Positions 2,275-33,916 are shown, counted from the stretch's first letter. The stretch is DNA of 43,936 bases from Prevotellaceae bacterium (GCA_031257655.1 JAIROF010000173.1:1-43936); one strand, 5' to 3'. Program-made: numbers and translations. The notes: generated by a model from the sequence alone, not told the origin.

Positions 2275-2309
2275 ATTGTATGTTAGATTGATTAAGTATA
2301 TTTTTTCTG

Positions 2310-2639
2310 CTAAATAACGATTTTGGCGTTGAACATTGCGCGCGCGTCTTCATATTCGTCGGGCGTTTTGGTCAGAATATCCATGGGCACTACAAATTTG
2401 CGCATAACCTCAAGGTTTGGCTGCACGGTCATTCTTGCCCGCTCAAAAATATCCTTACCCTCAAACGCCTTGGATACGATGATGAGGTCAATATCGCTGT
2501 CCTCGTGCGGGTTGCCGTTGTTGAACGAGCCAAATAGCGCAATTCGGTTATCAATACCATGCCTCACCAGCGTTTGGTGCATGTAGGCAATCACGCTATC
2601 TACCGTTGCCCTGTCCAAGTTTACTGCATCTTTATCCAT
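2310..2639 (-). CDS. minimal nucleotidyltransferase (MNT-type, partner of HEPN; antitoxin-like)
   Basis: 109-aa [24 protein letters not shown] matches the GS-x(n)-D-x-D pol-beta-fold NTase signature. Its ATG (2639) lies inside the 3' end of the upstream HEPN reading frame, a typical TA-operon overlap. Confidence 0.8.
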
Positions 2640-3012
2640 GGCTGTACTGTTTTTGTTTGTTGGTAAATGTTGATAGCTTGTTCTTTAGTGTAGAGCGCCA
2701 TCATTCTGCGCAAATCTTCCGGATAGCGCACTACTATGGACAAGCTGTTTATCCATTCTAAAAAACTTTTATGTCTTCCGGCAAATTCAAGGTGATTTTT
2801 TCCACAAAATACAGCAAGTTATGCAGCTTTGGCGGTATTTTGTTAAACCGCTTTATGTACAATCCTTTCAGCGCTTTTTCCAAGCTCAGGTGGCACATGT
2901 AAATGCAGTAAATGTTTCTTCCGGTTTTCAGCATAGAATCGGCCACGTCCAAGTCGTAGTCGGACTGCAAAAACCATTCTTCGTAGCTAAGCTGCTTTTC
3001 CATGATATGCAT
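2621..3012 (-). pseudogene. HEPN-domain protein, frame broken by a 1-nt shift in a T6 run (A6 on + strand, 2760-2765)
   Basis: Frame 1 runs from ATG 3012 (or 3003): MHIMEKQLSYEEWFLQSDYDLDVADSMLKTGRNIYCIYMCHLSLEKALKGLYIKRFNKIPPKLHNLLYF...DIKVF, then TAG at 2758-2760. The next frame continues directly with [45 protein letters not shown] and stops at 2621-2623. One extra T in the run would join both halves into a ~130-aa HEPN protein with EKALK...HNL and RYPED elements. The first 56 codons of the track ORF (3013-3180) look like a spurious extension. Confidence 0.65.
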
Positions 3013-3033
3013 TTTTGTATTAGCATGAGGCTG

Positions 3034-3041
3034 CAAAGTTA
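3034..3041 (-). promoter_or_regulatory. Bacteroidota -7 promoter box (TAACTTTG) for the HEPN-MNT operon
   Basis: Exact match to TAnnTTTG on the - strand, 22 nt upstream of the ATG at 3012. Confidence 0.45.
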
Positions 3042-3531
3042 ATAAATATTTCCTTCTCCCAAAAGCTGAAGCGACTAAATTAATTGGGCTTAGCCGCCCC
3101 GAATGGAGAGCAGTACAACGCACCGCAAAAAACAACATGTTAGTATCCAAATGCTTGCGCCACTTTTCCCGCGATGGCAAAAAAGCGACAGCTGGCGGTT
3201 AGCCTATATCAGCAGCAAAGCCGACAAGGGTCGACAAATGGCGCTCTCTGCCAAATAATGGGGCTAAATGCCTTTTTGCCAGGGCGTAAGCATAGCAGCG
3301 CTGTCTTTTTTGGCGTATTCGCCCAAAGTACAGGCAAATTTGTTACCTTTGTGCCGTTAGCCACTGCTTAAAAAGCGATTTTGAACAATTACATTGAAAA
3401 TAGCTGTACTCAGCGCCGCTAAAGCAAGCCGAGCGGAAGCAAGCGCTACTCTTTTATTTAGCTGATACGGAAAATATCCATCTAAAATTTGTGAACCCCG
3501 AAAATTAAACAACGCATAAAAAATAGCAGCC

Positions 3532-4899
3532 ATGGAATTTAGCATAAAAAATAATCAGGTCGTTTCGCTCAGCCTGCTAAAGAAAGAGGCGGCCACAGGC
3601 AATGACATTTTATTTGCCTTAATCGACGAAGGTCAGCGCCCCTGGGTTGAGCTGAAGCTGCACAACAACGAATTAGCTGTAATCCAAAAATCGGATGATA
3701 TTATTGCGGATGATATTTTCGACCTTAAGCTGGAGGAAATACTGTTGGAGATAATAGAAACAGAGCAGTCTGGGACGGACAGCTACAGCGAACAAAACAC
3801 GCTAGAGCCTAACCCGTACGACCCCGACCAAATTAAAGTCCGCTCCGATAAAATATCCATCACGCTTATTTCGCAGATGATTGACAACGGCGACATTGAT
3901 TTAAATCCCGATTTTCAGAGGCATTTGGTTTGGGATCAGATACAAAAATCGCGCTTGATTGAATCCATTTTGCTGCGAATACCCCTACCTATGTTCTACT
4001 TTGCGGAAGACAAAGAGGGAAAGCTGTCGGTTGTTGACGGGTTGCAGCGAATATCGGCCATTAAAGAATTTATGGACAATAAATTCCCTTTAAAAAACTT
4101 ACAGTACCTGGAAGAAAGCTGCAGGGGTAAGCACTATGAAACAAAGGGAGATAAGCAAGGTATTGACACAAAATATTTTAGATGGTTTAACTTGACCACG
4201 CTGTCGGCAAACATCATAGACCCGAGCTCTCCGTTTAAGGTGAAATATGATATTTTTAGAAGAATCAACACCGGCGGGAAGCCGTTGAATAACCAGGAAA
4301 TACGTAACTGCTTAACGGGAGAGGGGTTAAGAAGCGTCCTCAAAAAAATGGCATCCTTAAAGGAGTTTAAAACGGCAACCGATAATAGCATTAAGCCCAA
4401 GCGCATGGATGACCAAGAGGTTGCCCTCCGATTTCTCATGTTTTACGAAATGAAAGCCACAAAAGGAAATATAGCTTCCTACAGCGGCTACATGGATTCT
4501 TCTCTGGATGCATTTACAGAAGCCCACATAAAAAGCAAACAGATTGATTTTGAACAATCTGTAAAACGTTTTGCCGAGGCGATGAAAAATGCAGAGTACT
4601 TGTTTGGCAAAAAATATGCATTTAGAAAAGTTACGCCTAAAAACACCCGGCCTGATGCATACAAGCAGCTGATAAACAAATCACTGTTTGTATGCGCATC
4701 CATTTTACTGGCCGATTATAGCCACGAAAAAATTAAAGCGCTAAACAGCCGTCAAGCGTTGCTATCCCCTCTGGCAAAGGAGGTAGAAAGCAACAAACAA
4801 TTTTTTGCCTACCTGTCTTACGGAACCAACGGCAAAGCGAATTTCCTTTACGTGTACGACACGCTGGCCAAGCTGTTCAGCTCGGTAGTAAAATACTAA
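3532..4899 (+). CDS. DUF262 (ParB/Srx-fold, GmrSD/SspE N-domain-like) protein, no recognisable fused nuclease
   Basis: 455-aa ORF. Core sequence: DLNPDFQRHLVWDQIQKSRLIESILLRIPLPMFYFAEDKEGKLSVVDGLQRISAIKEF, followed by FRRINTGGKPLNNQEIRN. These are the FQR...W / DGxQR / N-x-G-x-x-L motifs of DUF262. The N-terminal ~110 aa are unassigned. AT-rich codon usage differs from the flanking genes. Confidence 0.8.
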   Translation: MEFSIKNNQVVSLSLLKKEAATGNDILFALIDEGQRPWVELKLHNNELAVIQKSDDIIADDIFDLKLEEILLEIIETEQSGTDSYSEQNTLEPNPYDPDQIKVRSDKISITLISQMIDNGDIDLNPDFQRHLVWDQIQKSRLIESILLRIPLPMFYFAEDKEGKLSVVDGLQRISAIKEFMDNKFPLKNLQYLEESCRGKHYETKGDKQGIDTKYFRWFNLTTLSANIIDPSSPFKVKYDIFRRINTGGKPLNNQEIRNCLTGEGLRSVLKKMASLKEFKTATDNSIKPKRMDDQEVALRFLMFYEMKATKGNIASYSGYMDSSLDAFTEAHIKSKQIDFEQSVKRFAEAMKNAEYLFGKKYAFRKVTPKNTRPDAYKQLINKSLFVCASILLADYSHEKIKALNSRQALLSPLAKEVESNKQFFAYLSYGTNGKANFLYVYDTLAKLFSSVVKY

Positions 4900-4903
4900 A
4901 ACA

Positions 4904-6046
4904 ATGAAACATATCACCATCAAAAACTTCAAATGCTTCCATGAGGTCGATATTCCGCTCAGCAAATTAGCTGTTTTGGCCGGAGCAAATGGCAATGGGA
5001 AAAGCACAGCGATTCAATCTTTGCTGTTTTTACGAAAGACCATAGAGCACTGCGCCAAATGGGAAAAAGGCCGGTTCGATTACAGCGCACCGAATGGGCT
5101 GAACGTAGAGCTGAACGGCTCATACTGCCTTGACTTGGGAAACAGCGACTACGTAATACCCGTAGATTCCAACATGCGCGATATAATTACGTTAGGATTA
5201 TTTGATGAGCGCAACAACAACGAATTTACAGTTACCTACAGCACCAATACCGGACAAGAGTTGTGGTTAACGCCCAAAGAAGTGTCTAACCGCTACAGAG
5301 ATAACCCTCTATGCCACCAAGAGTTTTACTACCTAAACGCAGAAAGGATAGGGCCGCGAATGTCTCAGAGCATAAAATTTTACGACTACCCTAACGTAGG
5401 CTTTAAAGGAGAGTACACGGCACAAATCATCTCCAACCTAAACTGGAGCTTCAAAGTAGACGAAGAGCGGGTTAACAGCGAAAATTTGTTGGGCAGCCGT
5501 TTTGAGCACTACATCAACGCATGGTTGAGGTTTATACTTCCGGGTGTTTCTGTTGCGTCCCACTTTGACGATAAAACGCATACTGCCCGCATTGAAGTTC
5601 AAAACAGCTACTCCAAGAACAACGCCATAATCCCGACCAATACGGGGTTTGGTATAAGCTACGTTCTACCCATTATCGTATCCGGGTTGATTGCCAAAAA
5701 GGATAGATTTATGATTGTCGAAAACCCCGAAGCACACTTACATCCTTCCGCTCAATCAAAAGTTGGTCAATTTTTGGCAATAATTGCCAACGCTGGAGTT
5801 AACGTTATTGTAGAAACCCATAGCGACCATGTCATTAACGGCATTCAAATTGCGGTTGTCCGCAACAAAATAAAGCCGGAAAACGTTTGCATTAACTTCT
5901 TCCAGCAGGATGATAACGCTACTCAGCCAAAAGTTACCACCATCGGTATAAAAGAAAAAGGGGAGCTAACGGATTGGCCTAAAGGATTTTTCGACCAAAC
6001 ACAAATTGACTATTCATACCTGATACAGCTTAGACGAAATGTTTAA
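4904..6046 (+). CDS. ABC/OLD-type AAA ATPase (AAA_15/21-like) with DUF3696-like C-terminus
   Basis: 380-aa ORF starting 4 nt after the DUF262 stop. Walker A is LAGANGNGKST. Walker B region is RFMIVENPEAHLHPSAQ. H-loop is IVETHSDHVINGI. C-terminal GELTDWPKGFFDQ is as I remember for DUF3696. Confidence 0.8.
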   Translation: MKHITIKNFKCFHEVDIPLSKLAVLAGANGNGKSTAIQSLLFLRKTIEHCAKWEKGRFDYSAPNGLNVELNGSYCLDLGNSDYVIPVDSNMRDIITLGLFDERNNNEFTVTYSTNTGQELWLTPKEVSNRYRDNPLCHQEFYYLNAERIGPRMSQSIKFYDYPNVGFKGEYTAQIISNLNWSFKVDEERVNSENLLGSRFEHYINAWLRFILPGVSVASHFDDKTHTARIEVQNSYSKNNAIIPTNTGFGISYVLPIIVSGLIAKKDRFMIVENPEAHLHPSAQSKVGQFLAIIANAGVNVIVETHSDHVINGIQIAVVRNKIKPENVCINFFQQDDNATQPKVTTIGIKEKGELTDWPKGFFDQTQIDYSYLIQLRRNV

Positions 6047-6854
6047 CTACTACTTGTACCATAGAAGCTACGAAAATTCAGCAGCTCAAGAAATTGAGCG
6101 CAACTTGCAAGATTTAAACGAGATCGTTTTCTGCGAACGGCGCGAAAACGAACATTTCTTTAAGCACGATGAGACCATTTGGGGCGTAAAAACAGCAGAT
6201 GGAATTTTTGGCGAGGTGGTTTTTTCAAAAATAGCGGATAAGCAATTTAGCAATAGCGTTATTCCCAAGTTGTTTAACGCCATTGATGCTATCGAAAAGG
6301 AAATATTATCTTTTGACGACTTCGACAATTTATACAAAACATACAACGCATTTTACGGAATTAATTTTGCCAACCTAAATTTAGACACACAACGCTGCCT
6401 CCGCAGTAAAGAGGCTTATAAAACGTTTCGCGCCAAATTTTTATGGGAGCTTACCCCCGCCTCGCTCTGGGAGCGGAGAGAGCAACTTTTTTCAAAAATC
6501 ATCCTTTGCCCTTCTGTTGAAGAGCAAATTAAAACGATTGGAGCTTCTTACATCGCTCAAATAGCATCAACGCTGAGAAAATTAGATGAATATGCTGTTC
6601 AATATTGGGAAAAAGGCAGCTTTAGCTATGATGACGCCAATAAAAAAGCGGCCTTAAATATTTCGCCTGAATCTGAAACCACAATGTCGCAGAATAAATA
6701 CCGTAATCAAAGAGTATTTTCTATGCCCGACGGAAGAAAAGAATGCTTTGAGCTGCACATAAAAGTGAGAGATATACGTTTTCATATTTTCCCCGAAGGT
6801 GGGAAAATTTATATTGGGTATATTGGAAAACACCTTAATACTGCTAAATTTTAG
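6039..6854 (+). CDS. hypothetical protein, third gene of the DUF262-ATPase operon
   Basis: 271-aa ORF. Its ATG overlaps the ATPase stop (ATGTTTAA, 6039-6046). Same AT-rich composition as the two upstream genes. I recognise no family. The C-terminus is ECFELHIKVRDIRFHIFPEGGKIYIGYIGKHLNTAKF. Confidence 0.7.
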   Translation: MFNYYLYHRSYENSAAQEIERNLQDLNEIVFCERRENEHFFKHDETIWGVKTADGIFGEVVFSKIADKQFSNSVIPKLFNAIDAIEKEILSFDDFDNLYKTYNAFYGINFANLNLDTQRCLRSKEAYKTFRAKFLWELTPASLWERREQLFSKIILCPSVEEQIKTIGASYIAQIASTLRKLDEYAVQYWEKGSFSYDDANKKAALNISPESETTMSQNKYRNQRVFSMPDGRKECFELHIKVRDIRFHIFPEGGKIYIGYIGKHLNTAKF

Positions 6855-7168
6855 AGTGTCACGAAGCCCCTGCCCGATTCAACACAGCATTTCCCGATCA
6901 GGCTGGCTGCGCGCTGTACCTTACCCTCCGGTGCGGCAGCGCAAAGCGCAGCAAGGCGCACCGCCGCGTGCCTCCACCGCACCGGCAATCCGCGCCTCGC
7001 GCAATTAAAATCTAAACGGGAATCTCTAAAAACCCAAAACAAGGCTTGGGGCTGAGGCAAAAGCGGAGGTTAGTAAGGTAGTGAGCGCAGCAAATGAGCA
7101 CTTTGCCGAGGGAGCGTAGCGCAGCGCTTGGGGGGGCGAGGGTTGGAGGTTTCCTAACCCTTCTTCGC

Positions 7169-8140
7169 TCAGGTTTTTCTTTGCAGGAGCGCAAGCGCCA
7201 GGCGTTCGAGGTGTTCCTTTCGCTCGCGCGGCGCGCTCACCTGCGCGAGGCTTTGCATGGCGGCGTTGAAGAGGGTATTTTCCGCATCCTTCAGCAGCTG
7301 CTGTGCGTTGGCCTTTGCGTAGAAGCGTTTTGCCTGCAGCACCTTTTCGGCGGTGGGGAGGCGGGTAGTTTGCATGAGCAGCAAAAAATCGTCGCGCTCA
7401 CGCCCTCGCAGGGCCGCCACCGTGCTCACAAACAGGAAAGTTTTTTTGCCTGCGGCAATGTCTCCGCCCGTAGCTTTTCCAAATTCTGCGGCGTTGGCGT
7501 ATGCGTCGAGGTAGTCGTCTTGCAGCTGAAACGCCAGCCCGAGCTTATAGGCAAAGTCGTACAGGCGCCGAACGTCGGCGTCGCCGGCGGAGGCGGCCAA
7601 GGCGCCCATGGCGGCGGAGGCGGCCAGCAGCGCCGCCGTTTTTTTGCCCACCATGGCAAAGTACTCGTCCTTGGTAATGGTGGGCTGCTGCTCAAAGTCC
7701 ACGTCGAGCTGCTGGCCTTCGCAGACCTCCGTTGCCGCGCGGTTGAAGGCGTCCAGCACTGCGGCGTTGCCGGCAGCGCCGCACACCAGCTTGTAGGCTT
7801 CAATCAGCATGGCGTCGCCGGAGAGGATGGCGGCGCTCACGCCCCACTTGCTCACCACGGTTGGGCGTCCGCGCCGCAGGCTTGCCCGGTCCATAATATC
7901 GTCGTGGATGAGCGTAAAGCAGTGAAAGAGCTCTACGCCCAGCGAAAGGTCGACGTGCTTTTTTTCCAGCTCCTGCGCAAACAGGTCGGCGCACATGAGC
8001 AGCAGCACCGGCCGTATGTGCTTTCCCCCCGATAGCAGGGCGTAGCGCATGGGCTGGTAGAGCATTTCCGGCGTTTGCGGAAAGCTTAAGCCGGCCATTG
8101 CGCGGGCAACTTGCTCCGCGAGCTGCGAAAAGGAGTACAT
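7169..8140 (-). CDS. polyprenyl diphosphate synthase (trans-isoprenyl diphosphate synthase family)
   Basis: 323-aa ORF. First aspartate-rich motif is LIHDDIMDRASLRRGRPT. Second is FQLQDDYLDAY. Confidence 0.9.
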   Translation of the reverse strand: MYSFSQLAEQVARAMAGLSFPQTPEMLYQPMRYALLSGGKHIRPVLLLMCADLFAQELEKKHVDLSLGVELFHCFTLIHDDIMDRASLRRGRPTVVSKWGVSAAILSGDAMLIEAYKLVCGAAGNAAVLDAFNRAATEVCEGQQLDVDFEQQPTITKDEYFAMVGKKTAALLAASAAMGALAASAGDADVRRLYDFAYKLGLAFQLQDDYLDAYANAAEFGKATGGDIAAGKKTFLFVSTVAALRGRERDDFLLLMQTTRLPTAEKVLQAKRFYAKANAQQLLKDAENTLFNAAMQSLAQVSAPRERKEHLERLALALLQRKT

Positions 8141-8148
8141 GGCGCCGG

Positions 8149-8553
8149 CTACTTTTGGCTGGCAGCCGGAGCTGCAGCGTCCTTATTCTTGTTGGGGTGG
8201 CCGCCGCTGCCGGACATGTTGCAGTAGCCAACAAACTTGGCGCCCACCTCAATGAGGATTTGCTCCGTAGTAACGTCGCCGGTAATATTTGCCGTAGATT
8301 TGAGCGCAAGAAAATCGCTTGCCGTTATTTTGCCGTTAACTTTGCCGAGGATGTCGGAATTTTTGCAGACAACATCCCCTTTTATATGCCCGGTTTCGCC
8401 TACCACGAATTTTCCTTTGGTGGTAACATTACCCTCCAACACGCCGTCTATGCGAATATCACTTGCCGCTAAAATGTTGCCAATAAAGGTAGTACCTGAA
8501 CAAATCCGGTTGATGCCGTTTGAAATGATTTCGGTGTCTTGTGCTTTTCCCAT
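8149..8553 (-). CDS. bactofilin-family polymer-forming protein (DUF583)
   Basis: 134-aa ORF with the repetitive beta-helix pattern IGNILAASDIRIDGVLEGNVTTKGKFVVGETGHIKGDVVCKNSDILGKVNGKITA. It sits 8 nt upstream of the polyprenyl synthase start, so the two are probably an operon. Confidence 0.85.
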   Translation of the reverse strand: MGKAQDTEIISNGINRICSGTTFIGNILAASDIRIDGVLEGNVTTKGKFVVGETGHIKGDVVCKNSDILGKVNGKITASDFLALKSTANITGDVTTEQILIEVGAKFVGYCNMSGSGGHPNKNKDAAAPAASQK

Positions 8554-8582
8554 ATTATCTGATTTTTTATATTATTTTGGAA

Positions 8583-8590
8583 CAAATATA
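8583..8590 (-). promoter_or_regulatory. -7 promoter box (TATATTTG) for the bactofilin/polyprenyl synthase operon
   Basis: Exact TAnnTTTG on the - strand, 30 nt upstream of the ATG at 8553. Confidence 0.4.
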
Positions 8591-8653
8591 AGGCTATTTT
8601 CCATACTTTCGCAAAGAAATTTTATCAAAAGAAATAGACATCCCGAACATTTT

Positions 8654-11200
8654 ATGAAACCAGCAGCCAAAATAGTTGCCATAATATTCTGTATAACAAC
8701 AATATGCATCATCATAAGCGTTGCGCTGACGGTTATTTACCGCAACGATATTGTCAACGCAGCGCTGGAGGCCGCTGCAAAAAATAACGAGCTGTATTTC
8801 AAATCGCAAAGCATCGAGGTCAAGTTTTCCATGAGCCTGAGAAATACAGCCTTGCTCTTTGGCCATGTTGACGTGCACAGCCGGCAAGGCGTATCCGCTG
8901 TAGGCGTTGCGCTACAGGCCGAAACGCTTCGCGTGGAGGTAGACTTGCTGCACTTTGCGGTGCACCGGGAAATAAAGGTAAAAAAGCTGCTGGTGCAGGA
9001 CGGCGAGCTCACGCTGCGCTTACCCCCGCGCCGGCGCAGGCGCCCCGCTGCTTCGCCCCCCATGCCCGACACCGAAGCCCTGCTGCACGGGCTGCGCCGC
9101 ATACAGCTCGAGCGCTGCCGGGTGAAGGTGGAGAGGGGCGCCGGCCGCAGCGTGGCGGTGGAGGTTAAAACGCTCGGCGCAGGCTTAGGGCACGACAAGG
9201 AGGCGCTAACCCTGCACCTGAAAAGCGCGCTGACGGTGCAGGTATCGGAAAATCAAAAGCCGGAGCAGGCCTCCGCAGCGGTTTCGGTAGACCTGCGGGG
9301 GCGCCTTGCGCAGGGCGTGGCAACCGTTACGGGCTGCGCGCTCAGCGTAAACGGCGTTGCGCTGGAGGCTACGGGAAGCGCGGCGCTGCGCCCGCCGGGA
9401 GAGGTGCGCCTGAGCGTTACCGGAAAAAGCTTGTCGATTGAGCGCGCCGTTGGCCAGGTGCGCAAATACGTCGCCTTCGACGCCCCCGAGCGCCTGAGCG
9501 GTCGCGCCGACGTTCGCGTTCGCCTCGCCGGAAGCCTCGCCGAGAAAGCCACCCTGAGCCTCGCCGGAAGCGGTACGGCGCACAACGTGGCGCTTAAGCT
9601 TAAGGGCGTGGAGGAAATAAGCGCAAAAAAGCTGCGCTACAGCCTCACCTGCAGCGACGTAAAAAATTTGCAGTCGTACGCCTGCGCCATCGGCAGCGAC
9701 GGGGTTTCCTGCGGGGGCTTTCGCTTCGACGGCGAGGGCGCCATCCGCAGCTTCAAAGCGCCGCTGTACGAGGTTAACGCCGGCTTTTCGGGCAACGTGG
9801 CGGCGCTCAAGGTGGAGAACCTGCTCGAGGGCCAGGTGGAGGGGACGGCGCAGGTGCGCGCCAGGGATTGGAGCGGCGAGGGCGTTGAGGCGTTCAGCGT
9901 GCAGGCAAGCCTGAGCAACCTCAAGGTGCGGCTCCAAAAAGAGGTGTACACGCTCAGCGGGCAGCTCAGCGCAGACGAAAGCACGCTCCGCTCCCAGCTC
10001 AACGTTGCCGGCTCCGCCGTAGAAGGCGCCCTCGACGCAACGGCGCAAGGCTACCTGGCGGCGCTGACGGGTAAGCGCAAAGAGGGAGCGCCAAAAATTC
10101 GCGCAACCCTCACCGCCAAACACCTCAACATCGACACGCTGCTGGCGCAGGGCCACAGCTCGGCGTCCGGCCTCAACATCGGCGCCACCCTCAACGCGCA
10201 GGTAGACGAGCTGACCGCGTTTGGCTACCTGTACAAAAATGTCTCCGGCGTGGTGGACTACTCCGCCCGCAGCTTAGCGGTCAACAAGCTGCGCGCCGAA
10301 GCGTTCGACGGTACGCTGGGGGGCGACGTAAAGCTGTACGCCGCCGCCGGCAAAAGCGGCCGGCTGGGCTGCGACTTGTACTTCAACGGCGTACAGCTGG
10401 AGAGCCTACCCTACCTGCACAAGGCGCTGAACGTAAAGCCCGGCAGCATGCAGGGCAAGTGCAGCGGCGCCATCACGCTCGCCTCCGACGTGGGAGGCAA
10501 CGGGCCGAACATGGACAACCTGAGCGCTACCGTAAACTTTACCGTGAGCAGCGGACGGCTGCTGAAGTTCGCGCCCGTGCAGCCGCTCTCGGCCTACCTC
10601 AAAAAATCGCTCCTGCAGGACATTCGGTTTTCGGCCCTCCAAAACACCGTGAGCCTCGAAAAAGGCAAAATCACCATCCCAAAAATGGAGGTGCGCTCTA
10701 CGGCGCTCAACGCAATCATTGCCGGAACGCAGGAGCTGAAGGGCGACTTTGACTACCACATAACGCTATACCTCAACGAGCTGCTGTCCAAAAAAGAAAA
10801 GGACATCGAAAACCCGATAAAGGAAAATAAAACGAAGCTCTTCCTGCGCTTTACGGCCAAAAATGGGGTGACCGAGGTGCACCACGACGCGCGCGAGTGG
10901 AGCAAAAACATGGAGAAAAAGGTGCTCCGCGAGGCGCAGGAAGTAAAGAGCTTGCTGCGCAGCAGGCATAAAGCGGACAAACCGTCGCAAGCCGTCGCGC
11001 CCAAAACAGAAAAAATCGCCGTGGAGTGGGACGAGGCGGCGGAGCAGAGCGAGGCGGCGGAAACAGACCCGCTGGAGGCGAAATACCCCAACAAAGAGAA
11101 GAAGAAGGAAAAGGAGAAAAGAAAGGAGGAAAAGAAAAACGCACCGGAAAAAGCAAAGCAGCGCTCGGCGGTAGAGGTGGAGTGGGAAGAGGAGGGCTAA
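8654..11200 (+). CDS. AsmA-family-like envelope protein with Lys/Glu-rich C-terminal tail
   Basis: I place the start at ATG 8654 (MKPAAKIVAIIFCITTICIIISVALTV, an N-terminal TM anchor). The track ORF start at 8237 overlaps bactofilin on the opposite strand. The body is long and beta-rich. The AsmA_2-like end is GKITIPKMEVRSTALNAIIAGTQELKGDFDYHITL. A charged tail follows (KEKKKEKEKRKEEKK). Confidence 0.55.
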   Translation: MKPAAKIVAIIFCITTICIIISVALTVIYRNDIVNAALEAAAKNNELYFKSQSIEVKFSMSLRNTALLFGHVDVHSRQGVSAVGVALQAETLRVEVDLLHFAVHREIKVKKLLVQDGELTLRLPPRRRRRPAASPPMPDTEALLHGLRRIQLERCRVKVERGAGRSVAVEVKTLGAGLGHDKEALTLHLKSALTVQVSENQKPEQASAAVSVDLRGRLAQGVATVTGCALSVNGVALEATGSAALRPPGEVRLSVTGKSLSIERAVGQVRKYVAFDAPERLSGRADVRVRLAGSLAEKATLSLAGSGTAHNVALKLKGVEEISAKKLRYSLTCSDVKNLQSYACAIGSDGVSCGGFRFDGEGAIRSFKAPLYEVNAGFSGNVAALKVENLLEGQVEGTAQVRARDWSGEGVEAFSVQASLSNLKVRLQKEVYTLSGQLSADESTLRSQLNVAGSAVEGALDATAQGYLAALTGKRKEGAPKIRATLTAKHLNIDTLLAQGHSSASGLNIGATLNAQVDELTAFGYLYKNVSGVVDYSARSLAVNKLRAEAFDGTLGGDVKLYAAAGKSGRLGCDLYFNGVQLESLPYLHKALNVKPGSMQGKCSGAITLASDVGGNGPNMDNLSATVNFTVSSGRLLKFAPVQPLSAYLKKSLLQDIRFSALQNTVSLEKGKITIPKMEVRSTALNAIIAGTQELKGDFDYHITLYLNELLSKKEKDIENPIKENKTKLFLRFTAKNGVTEVHHDAREWSKNMEKKVLREAQEVKSLLRSRHKADKPSQAVAPKTEKIAVEWDEAAEQSEAAETDPLEAKYPNKEKKKEKEKRKEEKKNAPEKAKQRSAVEVEWEEEG

Positions 11201-23486: not shown

Positions 23487-23497
<11 letters not shown>
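23301..23497. repeat. GC-rich hairpin modules followed by a degenerate period-7 array (TTTTTAG TTCTTAA CTCTTAG x3 CTCTTCC)
   Basis: Hairpins: TTACCTTCCG/CGGAAGGTAA (23301-23326), GCAAGGCT/AGCCTTGC + TTTT (23399-23420) and CGTAGCGT/ACGCTACG (23428-23445). The direct repeat ACGCTACGCC occurs at 23343-23352 and 23438-23447. The heptads span 23456-23497 and overlap the adhesin stop codon (23487-23489). Confidence 0.75.
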
Positions 23498-32771
<9,274 letters not shown>

Positions 32772-32914
32772 GTCAATTTTTTTTTAAGCCTAAAAACACC
32801 ATGTAGAAAAAAGGAATAATTTTGCTGCTATACTTCATCATCCAGCTCCCTTGCGCTAATTTTTCCACCTACATTCATATTTTTCGCGTGGTTTTTCAAG
32901 TTCATTTTTAAGAT

Positions 32915-33916
32915 TTAAAAATTCTTCGGGTTTCTCACCACGGGCACCTTTCTGGCGAAGGTAAAACCGAGTGAGATTTCGTGGCTTCCGTTCTGCACAT
33001 TTCCCACCTTCATGCGCGCTATAGAGAAGTCGTAGCAGTATCCTATTCTCAGGGATTGGGTTATCCACCCTTCGAGCATAACGGCCAAGGCGTTCATCAT
33101 GGCGAGGTTGCTGCCCAGGGTAGCGTTTGGTGGGTTTAGGGGCAACACCATGCGCGCGCCAACCCCCAGCCAGACAATATCGTTGTACGTGAGGCCTACG
33201 TTTGCGTCGATCAGGGGCCTGTCGTTGAGGGTGTAGCAGGCCAGCAGGGAGGGCGAAATTCTCCAGGCGTCGTTAAGGTAGTAGTGCATTCCCCCCATTA
33301 GGTAGAAGTGCGGGTTGTATATGTACAGGGAATCGTCTGTTTTGAAGCGGATAAAGGTTCCGAGGTTTGATACGGACAGGCTTGCGTAGGCCATTTTTCC
33401 GTAGCTGTAGTATGCGCCCAGCTTAAAATCCGGTCTCCACCTGGTTTCTGCGGCGAGGATATCGTCGCCGTCCTGGTATATAGGCTGCCCGTTGCTGCTG
33501 AGGCCGGCTGCGCTAATTCCCCCAAAGGCCTCCTGCATGGCGCCGGCCGCAAGTCCGAGGCTGAGCCTGTCGTCGAGCTCGTTGAGGCGTATTCTGTAGG
33601 CGTAGCTGGCGTATGCGCCCAGGGTCTTCATAAGCCCCAGCTGCTCGCCCACTACCGATAGCCCCCAGCCCATGCTGTTGCTCTGGGTGAGCACCCCGTC
33701 TACCGACCCCAGCTCCGAGCGCGGCGCCCCCTCCAAGCCCTGCCACTGCATGCGGTAAAGCACCTGGGCGTTGAACGTTTCGTAGCTGCCTGCAAGCGCA
33801 GGGTTAAGCGTTAAACCATTGAACATATACTGGCTAAGCTGAACTTCTTGCTGGGCGCGAACGCAAGGCGCCAGCAGCACCGCCAGCATCAGCACAAAAG
33901 TAATGCGTATTTTCAT
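32915..33916 (-). CDS. PorP/SprF-family type IX secretion system membrane protein
   Basis: 333-aa ORF. A signal peptide is followed by the family-typical N-terminus AQQEVQLSQYMFNGLTLNPALAGSYE. The body is beta-barrel-like. It lies directly upstream of the type-B CTD cargo. Confidence 0.85.
   Translation of the reverse strand: MKIRITFVLMLAVLLAPCVRAQQEVQLSQYMFNGLTLNPALAGSYETFNAQVLYRMQWQGLEGAPRSELGSVDGVLTQSNSMGWGLSVVGEQLGLMKTLGAYASYAYRIRLNELDDRLSLGLAAGAMQEAFGGISAAGLSSNGQPIYQDGDDILAAETRWRPDFKLGAYYSYGKMAYASLSVSNLGTFIRFKTDDSLYIYNPHFYLMGGMHYYLNDAWRISPSLLACYTLNDRPLIDANVGLTYNDIVWLGVGARMVLPLNPPNATLGSNLAMMNALAVMLEGWITQSLRIGYCYDFSIARMKVGNVQNGSHEISLGFTFARKVPVVRNPKNF

Follow-up and report, generated by a model that had tools for sequence, protein, structure and literature searches.

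A contig of a Prevotellaceae bacterium (GCA_031257655.1, JAIROF010000173.1:1-43936; the whole stretch of 43,936 nucleotides (nt) is referred to below as the window) carries at 3532-6854 three genes, which we identify with near certainty as a complete Menshen (NsnABC) anti-phage system. The locus adds a copy to a system that has already been described and catalogued; the system itself is not new. In our reading the locus is an intact, apparently functional Menshen in Bacteroidota, of the 'Type II' class and with a PB-BECR1-like NsnC; including the mechanism proposed below, we give this reading a probability of about 0.6. An initial annotation of the window had described the three open reading frames (ORFs) as a candidate anti-phage operon encoding a DUF262 protein, an ABC-type ATPase with a DUF3696-like tail and an orphan protein.

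The identification is based on profile searches. With the PADLOC profiles, NsnA was the top match of ORF1 (4.9e-109, amino acids (aa) 75-454) and NsnB that of ORF2 (1.2e-107, full length), and the top matches of ORF3 were two NsnC profiles, PDLC03912 (6.6e-44) and PDLC03879 (1.2e-30), both of which align only from aa 138/139 on. The next candidates were far weaker (PD-T4-2_A, 2.9e-42; HEC-03B, 3.3e-35; AriA, 5.3e-27; GajA, approximately 1e-15), so the locus was assigned to Menshen, which the initial annotation had already suggested as a combination of a DUF262 protein, an AAA_15/DUF3696 ATPase and a third gene. The Pfam families it had proposed to search for were found as well: PF03235 (GmrSD_N/DUF262) as the sole domain of ORF1 (5e-25, aa 113-260), and AAA_15 (1.3e-24), AAA_21 (9.2e-16) and DUF3696 (1.1e-13, aa 323-370) in ORF2. 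No Pfam family matched ORF3. NCBIfam gave no specific model for NsnA or NsnC, and for NsnB it offered only models of generic ABC and MADS3/PtuA type, with scores well short of the cut-offs. Two suggestions of the initial annotation did not hold. The locus is neither divergent nor an uncharacterised form, as Bacteroidota account for about 15% of the catalogued Menshen loci and the sub-family has hundreds of relatives, and ORF3 is not an unassignable orphan, being NsnC by PADLOC with a C-terminal H-R-H triad on a RelE/YoeB-like topology. A housekeeping role in ParB/SMC-like partition was considered and ruled out by the low-GC island, the sporadic distribution, the embedding in restriction-modification (R-M) operons and the PADLOC assignments.

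Anti-phage activity of Menshen has been shown for the Solibacillus silvestris system (StLB046; Millman et al. 2022, cited in PMC12065111), and phage resistance has been reported for a further Menshen (bioRxiv 10.1101/2025.07.10.664194). Li et al. 2025 (PMC12065111) catalogued 1997 Menshen loci in silico, 15.5% of them in Bacteroidota, with an association with R-M and BREX in 27.9% of loci, and proposed NsnA as the sensor, NsnB as the transducer and NsnC as the effector. This proposal is a published in-silico answer to the question of the sensing and effector roles, which the initial annotation had called unknown.

Architecture of the operon and its proteins

The operon consists of nsnA (3532-4899, 455 aa), coding for a putative sensor of the ParB/DUF262 family, nsnB (4904-6046, 380 aa), coding for an ABC-type ATPase (aa 1 to approximately 320) with a helical DUF3696 tail (aa 323-370, nt 5870-6013), and nsnC (6039-6854, 271 aa), coding for a predicted effector of two modules. 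All three genes, and all features within them given below, are on the + strand. The window ORFs and their coordinates agree with the three co-directional genes, the 4-nt gap and the 8-nt overlap of the initial annotation. The gap between nsnA and nsnB is at 4900-4903. The overlap between nsnB and nsnC (ATGTTTAA, 6039-6046) is read as ...AAT GTT TAA at the end of nsnB and as ATG TTT AAC at the start of nsnC, an arrangement that points to translational coupling. It was kept in every orthologous locus examined (L001, L003-5, L086-L090), so the coupling is not due to chance. The G + C content over approximately 2500-7000 was 0.41-0.44, against 0.58-0.61 in both flanks, which bears out the earlier remark on an AT-rich block. 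None of the three ORFs is disrupted; all are of full length with their conserved motifs intact. The motifs quoted in the initial annotation were all found in the translations: DFQRHLVW, DGLQR and RINTGGKPL in ORF1, and GANGNGKST, FMIVENPEAHLHP, ETHSDH and DWPKGFFDQ in ORF2.

Upstream of the operon, TACCTTTG at 3344-3351, 180 nt before the nsnA start, fits TAnnTTTG, the -7 promoter consensus of Bacteroidetes. This match has no conservation support, the intergenic region being unalignable to that of L001.

The ATPase was compared with 72 aligned NsnB sequences recovered from related loci. Residues conserved in at least 95% of these comprise G27, G32 and K33 of Walker A; R148, in place of the Q-loop Gln; N246; G248, F249 and G250 of the GxG signature; E273 and N274 of Walker B with P275 and E276; H278 and H280; E304, H306, S307, D308 and H309 (H-loop H306-H309); and, in the DUF3696 tail, G353, P359, F362, F363 and D364. 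Menshen-specific ATPase variants have been described as Walker B 'EN' for 'DE', Arg for the Q-loop Gln, GxG for SGG and a sensor His (PMC12065111), and the motifs of the window NsnB agree with these. From its motifs NsnB looks catalytically competent. Pfam found no TOPRIM in any of the three proteins, in line with the earlier observation that ORF2 carries no fused TOPRIM or nuclease. Published AlphaFold 3 (AF3) models show an NsnB4-NsnC2 complex formed via DUF3696, with the NsnC N-domain docked on the DUF3696 tails (PMC12065111), and mass photometry has indicated higher-order complexes for a Menshen system (bioRxiv 10.1101/2025.07.10.664194).

The AlphaFold 2 (AF2) model of NsnC has a mean predicted local distance difference test (pLDDT) score of 95 and consists of an alpha/beta N-domain (aa 1-137), a helical segment (aa 140-205) and, at the end, a helix with four antiparallel strands. 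The N-domain (6039-6449) is variable and Rossmann-like, lacks the PIN catalytic quartet and is the predicted docking module for the DUF3696 tails of NsnB. The C-terminal module (aa 138-271, 6450-6851), the predicted effector, comprises a helical sub-domain and a BECR-like core (aa 206-271, nt 6654-6851). By DSSP on the AF2 model, this core has a helix at 219-225 and strands at 234-236, 239-243, 246-253 and 256-263, which is the topology of the BECR superfamily. In 76 C-terminal modules from 76 loci, H240, R247, H265, E211 and R225 were 100% conserved. An H-R-H triad defines PB-BECR1, the commonest effector domain of Menshen (PMC12065111). H240, R247 and H265 match this triad, and H265 lies six residues before the C-terminus of the 271-aa protein. 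YoeB and YafQ have a C-terminal catalytic His at a similar position.

In a Foldseek search of NsnC against the PDB, 16 of the top 50 matches were toxins of the YoeB/HigB/RelE/ParE group (TMt 0.45-0.68, all with E >=0.27). The whole model had no PDB match with E <0.19 and nothing significant in BFVD (none <0.07), so that only the enrichment for the toxin fold is usable. A sequence link between the NsnC core and solved or curated BECR families was tried and rejected as uninformative, leaving at most a relationship at the level of the fold. The C-terminal module is predicted to be an effector of RelE/YoeB-like (BECR) topology, for which the fold evidence is only suggestive.

For NsnA, the AF2 model (mean pLDDT 80) comprises an N-terminal module, a linker, a DUF262 alpha/beta domain and an all-helical C-terminal domain. 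The ParB-DUF262 NTP-binding domain (aa 103-260, 3838-4311) was recognised by PF03235 and its motifs I-III, which are invariant in 41 homologues with 59-82% identity: QRxxxW (Q129, R130 and W134), DGxQR (D169-R173) and FxxxN (F242-N246). The best Foldseek match of the model was BrxU (7p9k_A, E 3.9e-4), followed by ParB-CDP (6sdk_A, E 5.5e-4); CTP/CDP-bound ParB and SspE were also listed. The C-terminal domain (aa 264-455, 4321-4896) is modelled with helices only (aa 264-452), and the PADLOC NsnA profile reaches aa 454. It is taken to correspond to the eight-helix DNA-binding domain that Li et al. named 'ParBDB' and is predicted to bind DNA. Pfam found no match to DUF1524 (PF07510) or HNH in NsnA, and the all-helical C-terminal half excludes a beta-beta-alpha-Me (His-Me) finger, which confirms what had been read from ORF1 by eye. 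Because of the absent profile matches and the all-helical C-terminus, NsnA as modelled is not a nuclease of the GmrSD or SspE type.

In front of these domains is a module at aa 1-80 (3532-3771, pLDDT 76-87) of six strands (aa 2-53) and a long acidic helix (aa 61-80), connected by an acidic linker at aa 81-100 (3772-3831) that is predicted to be disordered (pLDDT <50 at aa 87-95). The initial annotation had overlooked this module. Such an extra module makes the modelled NsnA that of a 'Type II' Menshen in the scheme of Li et al.; Type II accounts for 23% of Menshen loci and accretes DNA-recognition domains on NsnA (PMC12065111). The predicted topology, a curved sheet followed by a helix, fits the PS-BH class of Li et al. 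as compared by description. The N-terminal module is the most variable part of NsnA, with a column majority frequency of 0.54 versus 0.87 for DUF262. Module and linker together (aa 1-100) carry a net charge of -15, which stays within -8 to -18 throughout the 41 homologues; the rest of NsnA has +16. This conserved strong acidity is the only non-trivial feature of the locus.

The module is at present assumed to be a further sensor of phage DNA. Foldseek aligned it, weakly and without significance, with the DNA mimic Ugi-2 (8aim_B, 50 columns, E 0.68), which prompted the idea that it might instead imitate DNA within the NsnA molecule and auto-inhibit the ParB/ParBDB groove, by analogy with region 1.1 of sigma-70 or with Ugi. 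We regard this as improbable. If it were true, the sub-family would fire on displacement of the mimic, for instance by high-affinity phage DNA or by an anti-restriction protein of the phage with affinity for DNA mimics, and this would explain the co-inheritance of the module with a shortened NsnC N-domain as well as the frequent nesting in type I R-M operons.

Related loci and the genomic island

GTDB species representatives were scanned with an NsnC alignment, which gave 170 relatives, the best 80 of which were retrieved; co-occurrence was counted only in loci with at least 2.7 kb of upstream sequence. NsnB-like and NsnA-like genes were directly upstream in all 26 loci with a window-type NsnC and in 33 of the 35 loci sharing only the C-terminal module. 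The co-occurrence in other genomes that the initial annotation had wished to see was thus present, with the order A-B-C in 59/61 assessable loci. An N-module homologous to that of the window NsnA was found in 25 of 26 window-type loci versus 1 of 42 others, and the identity of NsnB to that of the window was 41-84% in the window-type clade versus approximately 29-35% in the others. By these comparisons the window-type loci constitute a separate, Bacteroidota-centred clade, in which the NsnA N-module, the NsnB clade and the short NsnC N-domain travel together. Co-variation of the N-module with the NsnC N-domain was considered as evidence for physical coupling and rejected: the NsnB identities show two separate clades, so that the co-inheritance is phylogenetic.

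Approximately 105 full-length homologues of NsnC (40-77% identity) were found, nearly all from Bacteroidota or metagenome-assembled genomes (MAGs); remoter matches covered the C-terminal half only. A search of 1.84 billion representatives gave 780 NsnC clusters at E <=1e-3, in which window-type proteins of 260-280 aa are mixed with proteins of 300-335 aa that share only approximately aa 140-271. Judged from these alignments, a C-terminal module shared by NsnC proteins with different N-domains is the domain-shuffling signature described for NsnC. In tblastn searches with NsnC, no match was obtained in 72,556 plasmids or 50,697 phages.

Genes for hsdM or hsdR flanked 12 of the 26 sub-family loci versus 2 of 54 others, a detection limited by similarity to the query used. 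The trio interrupts a type I R-M operon after hsdS and before hsdR (hsdM-hsdS-nsnABC-hsdR), often with recombinases nearby, in Elizabethkingia anophelis, Sphingobacterium faecium, a Sediminibacterium MAG and a Bacteroidetes MAG. Nested loci are L003-L005, L008, L013, L015, L018, L019, L024-L026, L028, L029, L086, L088 and L090, the nsnC stop and the hsdR start being no more than a few bases apart. In E. anophelis the operon contains further genes, namely PIN_12 between hsdM and hsdS and a pair for an nSTAND3 ATPase and an S8 peptidase between nsnC and hsdR.

In the window, the operon is part of a low-GC accessory island (2300-7000, G + C content 0.41-0.44) between the genes for methylmalonyl-CoA mutase (148-2274, - strand) and polyprenyl synthetase (7169-8140, - strand), the latter with a bactofilin gene alongside. 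No tRNA genes, no integrase and no border (att-like) repeats above chance were found for this island. An orthologous island is present in the same chromosomal neighbourhood in two Prevotellaceae MAGs, L001 and L007, with local inversions in L007. The operon DNA is 80.3% identical to that of L001 and the flanks 78-85%; at the protein level the identity to L001 is 81.5% for NsnA, 83.9% for NsnB, 71.2% for NsnC, 78.0% for the polyprenyl synthetase and 87.3% for the bactofilin. Since the neighbourhood is shared and operon and flanks are alike in identity, the island is judged to pre-date the divergence of the window genome, L001 and L007, having been inherited vertically with its foreign base composition kept. 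The amino acid identity of 68-84% to L001 and L007 without any disruption indicates that the operon is under purifying selection. In L007 (4460-16111), HEPN, MNT and mutB lie on the + strand directly upstream of nsnA, and the bactofilin and polyprenyl synthetase genes are inverted too; MutB of L007 is 95.9% identical to that of the window and the Nsn proteins only 68-77%.

The remainder of the island holds a gene for an MNT nucleotidyltransferase (2310-2639, - strand; Pfam NTP_transf_2, 3.9e-10, with weak matches to the NCBIfam MntA antitoxin and PADLOC PDC-S09) and a frameshifted HEPN gene (about 2621-3009, within 2621-3180, - strand; Pfam HEPN, 2e-10). From their family matches they form a type VII toxin-antitoxin (TA)-like pair, which is a neighbour in the island and falls outside Menshen. 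HEPN/MNT neighbours also occur in L001 and L007, and L001 has a duplicated MNT-HEPN-MNT arrangement. A 1-nt frameshift near 2760-2775, within a short homopolymer, divides the HEPN gene. The ORF at 2758-3180 stops at ...NLPEDIKVF*, and the remaining third, FLEWINSLSIVVRYPEDLRR...WIKMQ*, carries on to 2621 in a different frame, where it shares 19 nt with the start of MNT; the intact L001 orthologue has exactly this overlap. The frameshift is either a pseudogene mutation or an assembly error.

Elsewhere in the window, an ORF of 3094 aa (23487-32771, - strand) encodes DUF11 repeats and, at the C-terminus, a CHU_C signal for type IX secretion, and is adjoined by a PorP/SprF gene (32915-33916, - strand); a second low-GC patch (0.40 at 32001-33000) covers its 5' end. 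An ORF of 987 aa (8237-11200, + strand) has no Pfam match and encodes a C-terminal tail rich in Lys and Glu. Translation probably begins near 8770, because the 5' part of the ORF runs across the bactofilin gene of the opposite strand and the orthologue in L001 has only 809 aa.

Proposed mechanism and alternative explanations

Starting from the observed architectures, motifs, triad, operon and contexts, we inferred the functional steps, guided by Li et al. and by parallels with the PARIS, Septu, Gabija and ParB-SMC/ParA systems. NsnA, as a ParB/DUF262 NTP-binding protein with a helical DNA-binding domain and an acidic N-module, would survey DNA and recognise a feature of invading phage DNA. This recognition would stimulate or remodel the ABC ATPase NsnB, which is probably a tetramer and whose paired DUF3696 tails would hold NsnC by its presumably non-catalytic N-domain. 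Binding or hydrolysis of ATP by NsnB would then activate or release NsnC, and the BECR domain of NsnC would cleave RNA by means of H240, R247 and H265, so that translation stops and infection is aborted or stalled. The 4-nt gap and the 8-nt overlap would couple translation in such a way that production of the toxic effector always goes together with that of its ATPase keeper.

Several observations weigh against this reading. The toxin-fold matches of the NsnC C-terminal module do not go below E 0.27, so that the BECR assignment is statistically non-significant. A profile of NsnC aa 196-271 gave only designed 'Pizza' propeller proteins, which are spurious, against the PDB, and Malectin_like and other spurious matches against Pfam; hhalign against E. 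coli YoeB (verified sequence) and YafQ (unverified sequence) gave a probability <1%. The N-domain of NsnC shows only a generic Rossmann-like alpha/beta fold. In a scan for promoters and terminators the counts equalled the shuffle expectation, and no expression signals were found. The order of sensor, transducer and effector is an in-silico hypothesis, and AF3 gave no NsnA-NsnB interaction (PMC12065111). Finally, the host is an uncultured bacterium of the Bacteroidota. The alternatives that follow concern details and not identity, and each of them ranks well below the main model.

The alternative that survives best, although we think it unlikely, places the detection in NsnB. The ATPase would respond to a phage protein or to a change in ATP or other nucleotides and release NsnC in the manner of PARIS or Septu, and NsnA would tether the complex to DNA or regulate the operon. 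NsnB is indeed related to AriA, HEC-03B, GajA and PtuA, the ATPase itself is the trigger sensor in PARIS, and AF3 found no interface of NsnA with either NsnB or NsnC (PMC12065111). However, NsnA is retained in 59/61 assessable loci, and in Type II systems it is NsnA that accretes DNA-recognition domains, including the N-module found here, which is typical of a specificity or sensor subunit.

Considerably less probable is a dual or different nuclease activity of NsnC, in which the N-terminal PIN-like domain is active or the effector cuts DNA rather than RNA. A 2026 preprint disputes the 'inactive PIN' for one NsnC class, arguing that the PIN domain is active in the BECR-Tox2-type (bioRxiv 10.64898/2026.08.28.747851), and in the window NsnC the positions of E20, E38, E59 and D67 are D or E in at least 94% of 48 homologues. 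In a model with a pLDDT of 95, however, these four acids are all away from the C-terminal ends of strands 1 (aa 2-6) and 3 (aa 103-106), which is where PIN domains have their catalytic Asp residues; E20 and D67 are the only acidic positions conserved in at least 90%. Foldseek gave weak, non-significant Rossmann-like matches to this domain and no PIN match. Besides the start Met, G107 is its sole invariant residue, versus at least 9 residues that are 100% conserved in the C-terminal module among 76 sequences. The N-domain also evolves faster than the rest of NsnC (46% mean identity to the window protein versus 67% for the BECR core), and a domain with an active site would not usually do so. The evidence from this locus thus points to an inactive N-domain, and the model is consistent with a non-catalytic role.

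It is still more doubtful that the trio is mainly an addiction (TA-like) module, which would stabilise the island or an R-M operon without sensing phage. Such a role would suit a BECR toxin translationally coupled to a putative keeper, and the trio is often found within type I R-M operons and mobile elements with recombinases and here adjoins the HEPN/MNT pair. The measured anti-phage activity of a Menshen system (PMC12065111) argues against it, as do the vertical retention of an island without mobility genes in the window lineage and the presence of three components, with a DNA-binding NTPase, which is more elaborate than addiction needs. That the locus is a decaying, non-functional remnant is very improbable: the adjoining HEPN gene is frameshifted and the type I R-M context of about half of the sub-family has been lost here, but the three ORFs are of full length with every conserved motif intact and show the signs of purifying selection noted above.

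We therefore keep to the reading of an intact Menshen with NsnA as putative sensor and NsnC as predicted effector. The locus gives the catalogue an additional example, an intact, vertically kept, stand-alone Menshen from an uncultured Bacteroidales lineage, and it helps to define a Bacteroidota-centred sub-family. The current picture of Menshen is unchanged by it. Any well-behaved member could serve for biochemistry, for which the window locus is no better than dozens of orthologues from cultured strains.

Comparison with known systems

The Menshen system of S. silvestris has the same three co-directional genes. The first encodes a DUF262/ParB protein that ends in a helical domain and lacks a nuclease, the second an ABC ATPase in which Walker B reads 'EN' and which has the Q-loop R, the GxG signature and the DUF3696 tail, and the third a protein of two modules with the H-R-H triad in the C-terminal one. 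The reference is of Type I and differs in that the window NsnA, of Type II, has an extra module of approximately 80 aa followed by an acidic linker, and in that the N-domain of the window NsnC belongs to another, shorter family (approximately 137 aa, outside the best NsnC profiles), whereas that of the reference is inPIN11. The hosts differ as well, Bacteroidota for the window and Bacillota for the reference.

The orthologues in E. anophelis, S. faecium, Sediminibacterium and other Bacteroidota (L003-5, L086, L088 and L090) are of the same sub-family and share a 455-aa NsnA with the N-module (59-63% identity), an NsnC of 267-270 aa (52-58%) and the 8-nt overlap. Theirs are located between hsdS and hsdR, often on elements that carry recombinases, whereas in the window and in the two Prevotellaceae relatives the trio has no R-M operon around it and adjoins HEPN/MNT in a chromosomal island without mobility genes.

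With GmrSD/BrxU and SspE the locus shares a DUF262 NTP-binding domain followed by a helical domain, and BrxU was the best structural match of NsnA, as noted above. In contrast to these, NsnA has no DUF1524 His-Me nuclease; the predicted effector of Menshen is NsnC, acting in trans via the ABC ATPase. PARIS (AriAB), Septu (PtuAB), Gabija (GajAB) and HEC-03 (ABC ATPase and PIN protein) likewise rely on an ABC ATPase of the OLD type to hold or control a partner nuclease. The window ATPase differs in having no fused or partnered TOPRIM or HNH nuclease, and the system in having a ParB-like third component and a BECR-like effector; on ORF2 the AriA and GajA profiles scored at least 80 orders of magnitude worse than NsnB. 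The toxins RelE, YoeB, YafQ and HigB, finally, resemble the NsnC core in their helix with a four-stranded antiparallel sheet and in a set of basic and His residues with a His near the C-terminus (H265 of 271 here). They show no detectable sequence similarity to it, and the NsnC module differs further in its position behind two other sub-domains and in its putative control by an ATPase instead of a small antitoxin.

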